NCBI GenBank assembly: GCA_965601575.1
Contig: CBFCWR010000001.1
Location: 1-27,309 of the forward strand
Reading direction: 5' to 3'
Source of the DNA: an uncultured Desulfofustis sp.
Lineage (GTDB): Bacteria > Desulfobacterota > Desulfobulbia > Desulfobulbales > Desulfocapsaceae
DNA length: 27,309 nt
Shown: one piece after another, positions 967 through 6,300 of the stretch
Position numbering within the stretch: position 1 is the first letter of the stretch
Layout: every line of letters begins with the position of its first letter
Program-made: the position numbers and the translations under genes
Notes under the pieces: generated by a model
What the model was told of the DNA's origin: nothing
Database searches by the model: none
The model's input: only the letters and a program-made list of their open reading frames with translations

Positions 967-1430
967 CGCGGCCGCCAGACCCTGCCAGTTGACGTCTCTG
1001 GCTGGCACGATTTCCCAACTTGCCGGGTAATTCAAAATTTTCTGATTTTTCCCTGTCATTATCCCTGTAGTATCGAGAATAAAAATATCGGCTTACCTCC
1101 ATTATGAACTAGGCGATGAAGATAAAAACCTTTGAACTTCCCCATGAACACTACCTGCTGAAAGGCGATGAGCTCAGGGAAAGGTAAAATTGTTATTAAC
1201 TGCCCATAGTTATGTTGGTTATGGAAATTTAGATCAATCCGGAGAAAGTCCTTTTGGTTGTTAGATGATGCCGACGTCCGGGACAGATTTCTTGGGGAAC
1301 TCCTGCATTGCCCATGAATAATATGGTTTCATGAAATATGGGTCTTATATTCTGTATGTCCCTATCTAAGAGCCATCATGAAAAAAATGTTCTGAATATT
1401 GGCTTACGCAGAAAAAGAGGATCATTCGAG

Positions 1431-2231
1431 ATGAGAACAAGAAGCCTTATGGGTGAGCTGATTACAGCATTGTTGCCGGTGCTGGTAATGATATTGATTG
1501 GCAATACCGTGGCGGCAAAACCTCAAGACAAAAGTGATTCGAAAAATATGAATAGTTCAATAGTTACCACATACAATGCCGAAACTCTGGCGATTCCACC
1601 AATTGATGCGGCGGCGCCATCCACCTTCGAAACAGCGTCATTCGGGTTGGGCTGATTCTGGGGATTTGAATCCCGGTTCGGGATCGTACCTGGAGTGATC
1701 CGGACGCGTGTCGGATACGGTGGCGGGAACACGGCTTCGCCGACTTACCACAACATTGGCGATCATACGGAAACCGTGCAACTTGATTATGACCCCACCC
1801 TGATAAGCTATGAGCAGCTGTTGGATATTTTCTGGAACAGCCACGACCCGACCAGGAGTTCAAGGCCGGGGCAGTACATGCGCGCGGTGTTTTTCCACGA
1901 CGACCGGCAACGCCAGCTCGCAATGACCTCTAAAGCCGCGATCGAAGAAAAAACCGGCAGTACGGTTAAAACCGAAATAGTGCCAATTCGATCATTTACC
2001 CTGGCGGAAGACTACCATCAGAAATACACCCTGAAGCACAACAAGGGCCTGAAAAAAGAAATTATGCACATCTATCCGGAGCATCAGGACCTTGTCGATT
2101 CAACCGCCGCCGCCAGGCTCAATGGGTATGTGGGTGGTTACGGCAACAAGGACCAGTTGTCGAAGGAGATCGAAAGCCTGGGGTTGAGTGATGAGGCAGC
2201 AAAAGTGCTGGGTAATCTGGTCCCCAGGTAG
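1431..2231 (+). CDS. msrA: Selenocysteine-containing peptide-methionine (S)-S-oxide reductase with N-terminal signal peptide (Sec = TGA 1653-1655)
   Basis: ORFs 1338-1655 and 1695-2231 are in the same frame. Reading through TGA gives ASFGLG-U-FWGFESRFGIVPGVIRTRVGYGGG, the MsrA GCFWG motif with U in place of C. Downstream motifs TYHNIGDHTETVQLDYDP, QY and AEDYHQKY are intact. The start at ATG 1431 follows AAGAGG and is followed by a hydrophobic stretch ending VAA. Confidence 0.93.
1657..1694 (+). promoter_or_regulatory. Bacterial SECIS-like hairpin 3' of the Sec UGA
   Basis: Upper stem ATCCCG(1670-1675)/CGGGAT(1679-1684) with a GTT loop about 20 nt after the UGA. The lower stem TCTGGG(1657-1662)/CCTGGA(1689-1694) includes G.U pairs. 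Spacing and the loop G fit the bacterial SECIS consensus. Confidence 0.75.
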
Positions 2232-2252
2232 GCCTTTCGAAACAGATGCCCC

Positions 2253-2627
2253 TCAGGCTGCAAGGGGATCGGGGCCGAAACGATTCTCAGCGCTTGTTCC
2301 CTGCTGGACAAACCAGAAGAGCAGGATGAGGAAGCCGATAATTGGGATGAGCGAGATAAGGAGCCACCAGCCCGATTTGTCCAGATCATGCAGGCGCCTT
2401 ACTCCCACTCCTATTGACGGCACTATTATGGCCAGGCCCCACAGTGTACTGAAGAGCCCATAGCCTGAAGGGTTGCCGAAAATCAGGCCATCGACAAAGG
2501 ACAATAGCATCGCCACTCCCCAGCCAAACAGCGCAAACCACCAGTATTCCGATCGGGGGGCTCTGTCGTTGAAATTCGCATATTTTTTAGTCAGGCATGT
2601 TTTTACCGCGTCGCCAAAACTCATCAT
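2253..2627 (-). CDS. DUF805 family inner-membrane protein (YhaH/YhaI-like)
   Basis: KYANFNDRAPRSEYWWF, VGVRRLHDLDKSGWW and C-terminal NRFGPDP; three hydrophobic segments; GGAG RBS. Confidence 0.92.
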   Translation of the reverse strand: MMSFGDAVKTCLTKKYANFNDRAPRSEYWWFALFGWGVAMLLSFVDGLIFGNPSGYGLFSTLWGLAIIVPSIGVGVRRLHDLDKSGWWLLISLIPIIGFLILLFWFVQQGTSAENRFGPDPLAA

Positions 2628-3292: not shown

Positions 3293-4372
3293 CTATTTGT
3301 CGGTTATCACAATTGAAACCCGACGGTTTTTCATTCGTCCATCTTCCGTCTCATTGCTGGCAGCAGGCTCGCTTTTACCAAACCAGCTCAGGGTGATTCG
3401 ACTTTTGTCGATGCCCATTTTTTCGGTGAGATAGGTGCGGGCGCTTTCTGCCCGGCGCTGTGAGAGCTTCATGTTGTACTCTTCCGTGCCAACGCTGTCG
3501 GTGTGGCCGGCAAGCACAACCCGTTTGTCCTTATTGAGATTCAGATAAATTGAAAGCTCTATTAATTCCTTGGCCGCGGTCTCGTCAATGGCGCTGCTGT
3601 CGAAGGCAAAAAGCACGGCGCCTTGGATCGTGCCGGTTGCTTCTTCCTTCGGTTTCATCGCAATTTTGGTTGCTCTCTCGACTCTGAACAGGATATCTGT
3701 CATCCATTCGGGTTTGCCGAGAAGCTGAGAGAATGGGATCGTGCCGGAACATTCACTGGCGCTGGCAATGTTCATCACTGCTTCATACTGGGCCTTGTCC
3801 TGCTCGGTGCTGATAACCTGGAAGCAGACATTGTACTTTTCCGCCAGTCTCTTGGCTGTGGTTCCGGGAGCAGGAAAACCTGGTTGCGATGAATACTGTC
3901 CATCGGTAAATACGAAGACGACGGTCTTGCCCTCCAGTCCTGCCAGGACTTCTTCAAGTCCCACCAGGGCACCCTTGAGCCGGGTGTTGCCCCTAGGCTT
4001 GGTCGGCAACGCTTCAACCGCGCTGGTGAACTCGCTCTTGTTATAGGTCCGCATGGACAGGTGGGTTTTCAGGTCATTCCACCCCCAGCCGGGCGTAAAG
4101 GAATAGATCCCCGCCTGCCAGTCGAGTTCGGGCAGGGTGGATACTTTTTCTTCCAGTATCAGACGTTCGGCCTCGATTTCCAGCATGTCGGTGTTGCCAT
4201 ACTTGTCTGACATCGAACTGGATGAATCGTGGAGCACTATAAAGTTGTCGGCAGTTTTAACGAACACCACGTCTCCCTCATGGTGCATTGCCATCAGAGA
4301 AGTGGTGGTGCCCACAGACAATAAAAGGATAGAAGAGAGAAGCACACTGATATAAGAAATTGAACGATGCAT
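3293..4372 (-). CDS. Secreted vWA-domain / OmpA-C (peptidoglycan-binding) fusion protein
   Basis: Signal peptide; MIDAS DSSSSM, GNT and VFTDG; C-terminal OmpA domain with FAFDSS, GHTDSVG, NMKLSQRRAESA, GKSEP and NRRV; GGAGG RBS. Confidence 0.9.
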   Translation of the reverse strand: MHRSISYISVLLSSILLLSVGTTTSLMAMHHEGDVVFVKTADNFIVLHDSSSSMSDKYGNTDMLEIEAERLILEEKVSTLPELDWQAGIYSFTPGWGWNDLKTHLSMRTYNKSEFTSAVEALPTKPRGNTRLKGALVGLEEVLAGLEGKTVVFVFTDGQYSSQPGFPAPGTTAKRLAEKYNVCFQVISTEQDKAQYEAVMNIASASECSGTIPFSQLLGKPEWMTDILFRVERATKIAMKPKEEATGTIQGAVLFAFDSSAIDETAAKELIELSIYLNLNKDKRVVLAGHTDSVGTEEYNMKLSQRRAESARTYLTEKMGIDKSRITLSWFGKSEPAASNETEDGRMKNRRVSIVITDK

Positions 4373-4602: not shown

Positions 4603-6300
4603 TCACATCTTACCATGACGCAGGATTGAAACCAGCAGCCAGAATCCCATCATGCCGGCGAGCAGGAAGCCTATGAGGCCTATGATGGGGATATCGTGCC
4701 ATTTTGGAGGGATTCCGGACAGAACGATCAGTGATGAACCGATTACCAGAGATGCCAACACGATGGCAAAAGCTATCCGGTTTGACACCTGGTCAAGGGC
4801 AGCTCTCAGTTCGGACAGACCGCGGTGCTCAAACTCCATCTTGATCCTGCCCTGCCGAAGCTGAGCCAAGATCGTCCTGATCTCTTCCGGCAGATCCCTC
4901 AGCAGCTCGACATATTCAGAGGTCGTCACACCTGTCTCTTCTGCTATCCGGTTGATACGCACCCGTTCCGCCTTGACCTTTTTCATGAATGGTTCGGCGA
5001 GCTTGATGAGCTCGAGATCCGGATCAAGAATACGCCCGACTCCTTCGACGGTGGTTATCGCTTTCATCATGAGATAAAAGTTGGGCTTGAAGAATATCTT
5101 ATGATGGGAGACCAGGTCGAGCATGTCCTGCAGGATCTGGCCGGCTTCGAGTTCTTTCAAAGGCAGGTACATGTACTTGTCGAGCATATCGGAAAGATCG
5201 CGGCTCAGTGCCTCTCGGTCGACGTCCTCCAACTGGTTCGTCAACTTGAGTACACTTTCCGTTACCTTGCGCTCGTTGTTCCGGACCACATGGAGTATGA
5301 GATCGGCGAAATCCTCGCGGTTCTGTCGGCTCAGCCTTCCCATCATGCCGAAATCGAGGAAGCAGATGACATCGTCCGGCAGAATAAATATGTTGCCGGG
5401 GTGCGGATCAGCATGGAAAAAACCATGAACGAAGATCTGCTCCATGATCAGGTTGGTGCCCCGTTCGGCTACCAGGCGCAGGTTCGCGCCCTGCTCGAGG
5501 AGCTGATCGACCTCGGAGGCTTTCACGCCGTCGATGCTTTCCATCGTCAAGATGCGTCTGCAGCTCAGCTCCCGGTAGACCCTGGGGACATAGATTGCGG
5601 AATTTCCTTTGAACTGCCTGCCGAACCGCTCAATGTTTGAGATCTCAACCGCGTAATCAATTTCCTTTGAGATGGTGCGGGCAAACTCCTCAACTATCGA
5701 ACTCGGGCGGTGGCCCTGCAGTTCTTCCAGATAGCGCTCCATCAGGGAGGCGATATGGGCAATTATTTCGAGATCTATGGCAATGGTTTTTTCGATATCG
5801 GGCCGCTGTACCTTGACCACGACAGTGGTGCCATCGTGCAACACGCCCCGGTGAACCTGGCCGATGGAAGCGGCCGCGATCGGTTCGGAATTGAATTCTT
5901 TGAACAGTTCGTCCGGTTTTTTGCCGGTTTCCTCAATGAAAATCTGTTCAACGTCCTCGTATGAGAAAGAGGGGACGTCATCTTGTAATTTGGCCAATTC
6001 AATCAGATAATCCGGCGGGATGAAATCAGACCTGGTGGAAAGAACCTGACCGAGTTTGATGAACGTCGGGCCAAGTTCTTCACAAGCCATGCGTAATCGT
6101 TCTTCTCGAGAGAGCCTGTCGATCTGCTCCTTGGGTTTGCGGTTGATCATCTGCAGACCGCTCTCCAGGTACTGGTCGATATGGAGCATTTCAATGGCAT
6201 CCGCGAAACCGTATTTGAAGAGAATGCGTACTATCCTCTGGTATCTGTTCAGATGCCGGTAAGTTCTCCCGATTGATCCTATCTTTCTGATGCTGAACAT
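4603..6300 (-). CDS. ABC1/AarF/UbiB family atypical protein kinase
   Basis: LGPTFIKLGQVLSTR, AAASIGQVH, VVKVQRP, FFHADPHPGN and LDFGMMG, plus two C-terminal TM helices. Confidence 0.95.
   Translation of the reverse strand: MFSIRKIGSIGRTYRHLNRYQRIVRILFKYGFADAIEMLHIDQYLESGLQMINRKPKEQIDRLSREERLRMACEELGPTFIKLGQVLSTRSDFIPPDYLIELAKLQDDVPSFSYEDVEQIFIEETGKKPDELFKEFNSEPIAAASIGQVHRGVLHDGTTVVVKVQRPDIEKTIAIDLEIIAHIASLMERYLEELQGHRPSSIVEEFARTISKEIDYAVEISNIERFGRQFKGNSAIYVPRVYRELSCRRILTMESIDGVKASEVDQLLEQGANLRLVAERGTNLIMEQIFVHGFFHADPHPGNIFILPDDVICFLDFGMMGRLSRQNREDFADLILHVVRNNERKVTESVLKLTNQLEDVDREALSRDLSDMLDKYMYLPLKELEAGQILQDMLDLVSHHKIFFKPNFYLMMKAITTVEGVGRILDPDLELIKLAEPFMKKVKAERVRINRIAEETGVTTSEYVELLRDLPEEIRTILAQLRQGRIKMEFEHRGLSELRAALDQVSNRIAFAIVLASLVIGSSLIVLSGIPPKWHDIPIIGLIGFLLAGMMGFWLLVSILRHGKM

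Follow-up and report, generated by a model that had tools for sequence, protein, structure and literature searches.

Does the UGA codon at positions 1653-1655 of a 27,309-nucleotide stretch of DNA end a gene, or does it encode the catalytic residue of a methionine sulfoxide reductase A (MsrA)? The stretch, here called the window, comes from an uncultured Desulfofustis sp. (assembly GCA_965601575.1, contig CBFCWR010000001.1, positions 1 to 27,309 of the forward strand). We find that positions 1431-2231 very probably constitute a genuine selenoprotein MsrA gene with selenocysteine (Sec, U) as the catalytic residue, and we put the probability of this at about 0.95. The first-pass annotation had proposed a single selenoenzyme of 266 amino acids (aa) here. 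That proposal is supported by the conservation of the TGA, a covarying hairpin, and the presence of tRNA-Sec and SelB.

The in-frame UGA, its hairpin and its decoding

The gene occupies a single reading frame. When TGA is translated as U, 1431..2231 (+) comprises 266 sense codons closed by TAG, free of further stops or frameshifts, and the listed open reading frames (ORFs) 1338/1431..1655 and 1695..2231 share this frame. The lone in-frame TGA, at 1653..1655 (+), is codon 75 and lies in the context GGC TGA TTC TGG GGA, which reads G-U-F-W-G. The first-pass annotation had joined the two ORFs at TGA-TTC-TGG-GGA as G-U-F-W-G; its coordinates and 266-aa length are correct, and its peptide GLGUFWGFESR matches the translation.

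Orthologues open at a Met equivalent to that at 1431 (MKTRS.., MTKRS.., MGKRS..), which places the start at 1431. The upstream ATG at 1338 was rejected on these orthologue starts and on a Shine-Dalgarno-like AGAGGA at 1416..1421 (+), read from the sequence, 9 nt before ATG 1431. A promoter scan found no sigma-70-like promoter upstream of the MsrA gene.

The TGA is shared by all orthologues examined. We searched 40 related genomes and, separately, an even 300-genome sample of the phylum. The related genomes contained 10 further full-length orthologues (47-66% identity), each with one internal stop, a TGA at the same codon, and with protein conserved on both sides of it (..IPPIDAAAP..ETASFGLG-U-FWGxES(R/Q)FGI..GVIRTRVGY). 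The phylum sample placed the subfamily in 20 more genomes, with TGA at the catalytic codon in 21/21 matches. Named records with the same TGA come from Desulfobulbaceae, Desulfofustis, Desulfobacteraceae, Chloroflexota, Anaerolineae, Nitrospiraceae, Armatimonadetes, Halanaerobiaceae and Clostridium hydrogeniformans.

Other members of the subfamily have Cys, encoded by TGC or TGT, at the UGA column (L047, L048, L051, L053, L090-L093, P0057, P0067, P0072, P0085, P0103, P0109 and others); no close orthologue has either codon there. The first-pass annotation had regarded TGC or TGT in the closest relatives as the sign of a recent nonsense mutation. Alignment of homologues gave the opposite result, with TGA in the orthologues and Cys in more distant family members. 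As read from the sequences, this distribution of Sec and Cys is the usual pattern of true selenoproteins.

Several loci vary in architecture. One orthologue (L074; G085:C30:77499-78095) has two in-frame TGAs and the motif G-U-F-W-R, and its frame ends 135 codons past the first TGA; the second TGA might encode another Sec, or the gene might be truncated or decaying. The Sec-MsrAs at L082, L087 and L088 have 263-325 open codons upstream of the UGA, which suggests fusion to another N-terminal domain. At L054:133-1437, from a metagenome-assembled genome (MAG) of Halanaerobiaceae, Sec-MsrA is fused behind an MsrB domain that bears an N-terminal transmembrane segment.

The UGA is followed by a hairpin typical of a bacterial selenocysteine insertion sequence (SECIS). 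This hairpin, at 1670..1684 (+), consists of the stem strands AUCCC (1670-1674) and GGGAU (1680-1684) and the loop GGUUC (1675-1679), and sits within the codons for E-S-R-F-G-I. Its stem begins 15 nt past the UGA and its loop lies 20-24 nt past it; the earlier description of a hairpin about 20 nt downstream was thus a fair one.

The stem is maintained by compensatory change. In an alignment of 39 distinct Sec forms, where columns 18-22 pair with columns 28-32, 92.3% of cells are paired, 23 cells have double changes, and both partners vary at three of the five pairs. Six types are seen at pair 18-32 (CG, AU, UG, GU, UA and GC), three at pair 19-31 (UA, GC and UG), and two at pair 20-30 (CG and GC). 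None of 500 shuffles matched the observed covariation score, and sliding the partner by 1-3 columns lowered pairing to 28-58%. Among Sec forms, G24 and U25 of the loop vary hardly or not at all.

Sec forms and Cys forms differ in this hairpin. It is fully paired in 25/35 Sec forms versus 2/8 Cys forms, with mean energies of -8.8 and -5.2 kcal/mol, respectively. Cys forms that encode the same residues (DSRFGS) do so with synonymous codons that disrupt the stem. Both the TGA and the hairpin recur in about 40 independent orthologues, and their joint occurrence is therefore far beyond chance.

The hairpin resembles a known SECIS element in part. Like the E. coli fdhF SECIS, it is a small coding stem-loop a dozen or so nt after the UGA, with a G-U in its apical loop (GGUC in fdhF, GGUUC in the window) near position 23-25, numbering from the U of the UGA. 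However, the conserved stem of the window hairpin is only 5-7 bp long, and no conserved bulged U was identified in it.

Variant hairpins were seen at a few loci. The forms at L048:4064-4111 (a Dehalococcoidales MAG) and L093 have Cys (TGC) together with a perfect SECIS-like hairpin, CUCCC-UGUUC-GGGAG, and may be recent Sec-to-Cys conversions that retain a fossil SECIS. At L054, the usual hairpin position is unpaired and a different stem, CCCGGA..UUCGGG, starts 8 nt after the UGA; it may replace the usual hairpin.

Components of the Sec-decoding apparatus are present in the same genome. We detected tRNA-Sec(UCA) at 75 bits, also called SeC by ARAGORN, and SelB, whose score of 332 bits exceeds the cut-off of 242. 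The formate dehydrogenase alpha gene FdhA (contig C67:2925-4532; L064) has a TGA at the canonical Sec site (..HQARI-U-HSSTVAG..) and, judged by that site, is a second selenoprotein gene in the same MAG. By the standard bacterial mechanism, the UGA at 1653-1655 would be decoded by tRNA-Sec(UCA) delivered by SelB, which the in-frame hairpin at 1670-1684 would position.

TGA otherwise acts as a stop in this genome. It is the commonest ordinary stop, ending 487/1005 ORFs of at least 350 aa, and an alternative code in which TGA means Trp or Gly was rejected because of this.

The genus mates tested carry the synthesis genes as well. Both selA and selD scored above their cut-offs in 5/5 of them, and selD itself has an in-frame TGA in 5/5. 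At three genus-mate loci (L039:1528, L040:1528 and L041:1528; G001, G008 and G009), the selD motif is ..SKTCG-U-AAK.., and a CCC-GGUC-GGG hairpin very like that of MsrA follows the UGA.

Family, fold and predicted location

The protein is a two-domain MsrA of the “1-Cys” type, as in Clostridium (Alkaliphilus) oremlandii, with a PMSR domain and a C-terminal helical domain. In profile searches run with Cys in place of U, PMSR (PF01625) matched residues 69-207 (1635..2051, +) at E 8e-42 and 143.4 bits (cut-off 23.7), TIGR00401 (msrA) gave 127.2 bits against 108.1, and PF20939 (MsrA_helical, the helical domain of selenoprotein MsrA) gave 30.5 bits against 23.7. The last match covers residues 220-255 (2088..2195, +), within a region modelled by AlphaFold (AF2) as helices 205-263. 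A weak match to NCBIfam NF041383 (“VPGUxxT family thioredoxin-like (seleno)protein, type 2”; E 1.2e-8, far below cut-off) pairs residues 25-168 with model positions 97-224, which suggests that this model includes an MsrA-like region.

The closest solved structures are those of the C. oremlandii selenoprotein MsrA (CoMsrA; 4LWJ-4LWM, 4U66 and 7C13), which phmmer matched in the PDB at E 4e-53 over residues 68-260, with an identity of about 41-42% over 200 residues. The AF2 model, built on a 15-sequence alignment, has a mean predicted local distance difference test score of 78.8 (about 80-98 across most of both domains, catalytic and helical). Its superposition on 4LWL/4LWJ spans 201 columns and gives a template modelling score of 0.88 by target.

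The active site is conserved. In CoMsrA it comprises the GCFWG motif together with Y47, E55, Q89, Y90, H137 and Y140 (PMC4333827). In the phmmer alignment these six residues correspond to Y106, E114, Q148, Y149, H196 and Y199 of the window protein, all conserved, and the nucleophile motif G74-U75-F76-W77-G78 lies at the start of the PMSR domain. Met-S-sulfoxide reductase is thus the most likely activity, assigned from family membership.

The 266-residue translation contains no Cys at all, which makes this a “1-Sec” enzyme without a resolving residue. By family chemistry, Sec75 would attack the sulfoxide, releasing methionine and leaving a selenenic acid. Because there is no resolving Cys, an external thiol or selenol reductant would then be needed to reduce the selenenic acid.

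Sec-containing MsrA is itself well known, as the first-pass annotation had stated. Selenoproteome surveys recorded it in Syntrophobacter fumaroxidans in 2006 (PMC1794560) and in deltaproteobacterial Olavius symbionts in 2007 (PMC1976440), and the bacterial selenoprotein family, whose motif is GUFWG/H, is an established one (review PMC13188914). The deltaproteobacterial forms share the family, the motif and the broad lineage (Desulfobacterota) of the window protein.

CoMsrA, which has been characterised biochemically and structurally (PMC4333827, PMC4479559; PDB 4LWJ, 4LWK, 4LWL, 4LWM, 4U66), offers the closest comparison. Both proteins have Sec in G-U-F-W-G, no Cys, and a PMSR domain followed by a C-terminal five-helix domain (PF20939). 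CoMsrA is 209 aa long with Sec at position 16, and the alignment begins at its residue 9 (residue 68 of the window protein). The window protein has about 67 extra N-terminal residues, made up of a signal peptide, a low-complexity linker and the IPPID motif, whereas CoMsrA has no counterpart of the signal peptide or anchor or of IPPID, and its cytoplasmic location is not the one predicted for the window protein. Thus, predicted location separates the two enzymes, not fold or chemistry. CoMsrA is recycled by a cytoplasmic (seleno)glutaredoxin (PMC4333827), and glutaredoxin is not an obvious candidate for a reductant outside the membrane.

The N-terminus carries predicted export features. Residues 1-29 (1431..1517, +; MRTRS, LITALLPVLVMILIG, NTVAA, then K) form a predicted Sec-type signal peptide (Sec here denoting the secretion route) or N-terminal membrane anchor, with a basic n-region, a 15-residue hydrophobic core and V-A-A at -3 to -1. 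AF2 models a lone helix at residues 7-24 and a disordered linker at 27-52. The mature domain starts with the conserved motif I-P-P-I-D (1593..1607, +), common to the Sec and Cys forms of the subfamily, in whose alignment I55, P56, P57, I58 and D59 are almost invariant. All 18 of the Sec orthologues first inspected have a signal peptide, a lipobox or a transmembrane segment, and many full-length Cys forms also have such features. The protein is therefore predicted to work, most likely, outside the cytoplasmic membrane, either in the periplasm or anchored to the membrane.

Gene order in relatives points to the envelope. At about 10 loci, Sec-MsrA directly follows an MsrB or MsrA-MsrB gene bearing its own signal peptide. 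Two genus-level relatives have genes for an OmpR-type regulator and a HAMP histidine kinase ahead of the MsrAB/Sec-MsrA pair. At L068:4641-8714 (G007) and L045:2-4801 (MAG MFD09964), the conserved order is OmpR regulator, HAMP kinase, MsrA-MsrB fusion, Sec-MsrA; the fusion is exported and has a GCFWC motif. The window lacks this arrangement, which could represent an envelope oxidative-stress regulon. The association with exported MsrB or MsrA-MsrB in many relatives suggests that Sec-MsrA would be part of an envelope methionine-sulfoxide repair set.

Only MsrB/MsrAB (about 10 loci) and two-component genes (3-4 loci) recur in a census of neighbours. The same census detected no thioredoxin-like or CcdA/DsbD gene, with most loci represented by 1.5-kb flanks only.

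Exported MsrA chemistry has a precedent. The Neisseria PilB structures 3BQE-3BQH are among the fold matches, at about 30% identity. PilB uses Cys and is recycled by its own fused thioredoxin-like domain. The window protein resembles it in that MsrA chemistry is predicted outside the cytoplasm and in its association with MsrB, but has Sec, no Cys and no fused redox domain. Neither “signal peptide” or “periplasm” tied to MsrA nor a link to exported MsrB appears in the two surveys and the review (PMC1794560, PMC1976440, PMC13188914), the 2009 characterisation of CoMsrA lying outside this comparison. Export of Sec-MsrA may be under-described in the literature.

In the window, MsrA stands by itself, flanked by an SDR gene on one side and by a DUF805 gene convergent with it (2253-2627, -) on the other. 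Its neighbours are SDR, DUF805, a small membrane protein, OmpA-vWA and UbiB. The OmpA-family protein (3293-4372, -), which has both a signal peptide and a vWA domain, and the UbiB/ABC1 kinase-like protein (4603-6300, -) have no evident link to MsrA. A terminator-like GC hairpin, CCCCTTGCAGCCTGAGGGG, lies at 2249-2267 (- strand) in the 21-nt gap that separates the MsrA stop from the DUF805 gene; it overlaps the 3' end of the latter and may serve both genes.

Weighing the alternatives

Could the UGA at 1653 be read by something other than tRNA-Sec? A near-cognate tRNA might insert Cys or Trp there, either always or when selenium is scarce, and selA and selD are indeed not found in the assembly, while the gene calls of some relatives (P0008, P0036, P0051 and P0104) print W at this position. 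These calls, however, show only that their callers used a code with TGA as Trp, and a Trp residue could not supply the nucleophile of MsrA. In this genome TGA is the most frequent genuine stop; tRNA-Sec, SelB and a Sec-type FdhA are present, and the genus mates have complete machinery. A SECIS hairpin conserved by compensatory changes would also be purposeless without SelB. We regard such read-through as very improbable.

A Cys-MsrA recently inactivated by a nonsense mutation is more improbable still. A single base change turns TGC or TGT into TGA, and annotation pipelines do treat the gene as truncated. Yet the same TGA is found in about 40 orthologues from several phyla, down to about 37-45% identity, the frame is intact with no other stop or frameshift, conservation of the protein extends to either side of the TGA, and TGC or TGT occurs in no close orthologue. 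Just as negligible, in our estimate, is the case for two products, in which 1431-1655 would yield a small secreted peptide and GTG 1695 would initiate an MsrA-like protein of 178 aa. Both pieces are open frames and the second is a database entry, but the PMSR domain in the 178-aa piece is missing its first beta-strand and the entire G(C/U)FWG motif, and the Pfam match begins at residue 69, upstream of the TGA. The region from the TGA to 1695 (FWGxESRFGI..GVIRTRVGY) is conserved as protein in all orthologues, and each Cys form is one uninterrupted protein that includes the same N-terminal IPPID segment.

Several observations nevertheless weigh against a Sec-containing, exported enzyme. The fold energy of 1653-1712 is no better than that of shuffles (z = -0.19); it is therefore comparison, and not thermodynamics, that supports the hairpin. 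Because the hairpin is coding, some of the covariation (E..I versus D..S) could reflect protein-level co-variation, and two of eight Cys forms retain the hairpin. The assignment of export comes from sequence features and analogy only, and no redox or reductant partner gene is evident next to MsrA in the window.

Neither selA nor selD was found in the MAG with PF03841, TIGR00474, TIGR00476 or tblastn using genus-mate sequences, and these searches returned AIR-synthase-type paralogues only. The first-pass annotation had tied its proposal to the Sec machinery of the genome. This held for tRNA-Sec, SelB and a Sec-type FdhA, and failed for selA and selD. The MAG consists of 503 contigs and is 89% complete, and both genes occur in each of the five genus mates tested; their absence is thus most simply read as an assembly gap.

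Annotation and significance

Public records hold the gene in truncated form. Gene callers record a GTG-initiated 178-aa fragment (1695..2231, +) without the catalytic residue, and this entry (P0002; 100% identical, covering 67% of the full protein) is the sole database form of the gene. The first-pass annotation was right that pipelines split or truncate such genes, the public record here being the C-terminal fragment only. The closest relatives are mostly recorded as fragments of 166, 178 or 188 aa named “peptide-methionine (S)-S-oxide reductase”, and a few callers have rendered the TGA as Trp, with “GLGWFWG” as the result. Among 3166 proteins found at E <= 1e-20, many are recorded as 166-188-aa fragments that lack the catalytic residue. 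Inferences of metabolism and stress response from such MAGs thus overlook an active repair enzyme or misjudge it. Together, the conserved TGA and hairpin provide a simple rule by which truncated Sec-MsrA calls can be repaired.

Current knowledge of the family stands, since Sec-MsrA and its two-domain structure have already been described. Only the exported, Cys-free character of the protein and its link to exported MsrB go beyond the textbook. On balance, we favour the view that the gene belongs to a large, mostly mis-called clade of exported MsrAs (signal peptide or lipoprotein, IPPID and helical domain), which is apparently uniformly Sec-containing in Desulfobacterota and often found beside exported MsrB/MsrAB, sometimes with OmpR/HAMP-kinase genes. 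Together these would form a selenium-dependent envelope repair system of anaerobes, served by a periplasmic reductant, which a resolving Cys could not be. For sulfate-reducing and related anaerobes, an exported, Cys-free seleno-MsrA raises the question of which envelope reductant acts on the selenenic acid outside the cytoplasm. Such a protein also joins the few selenoproteins predicted to use the general secretion route.

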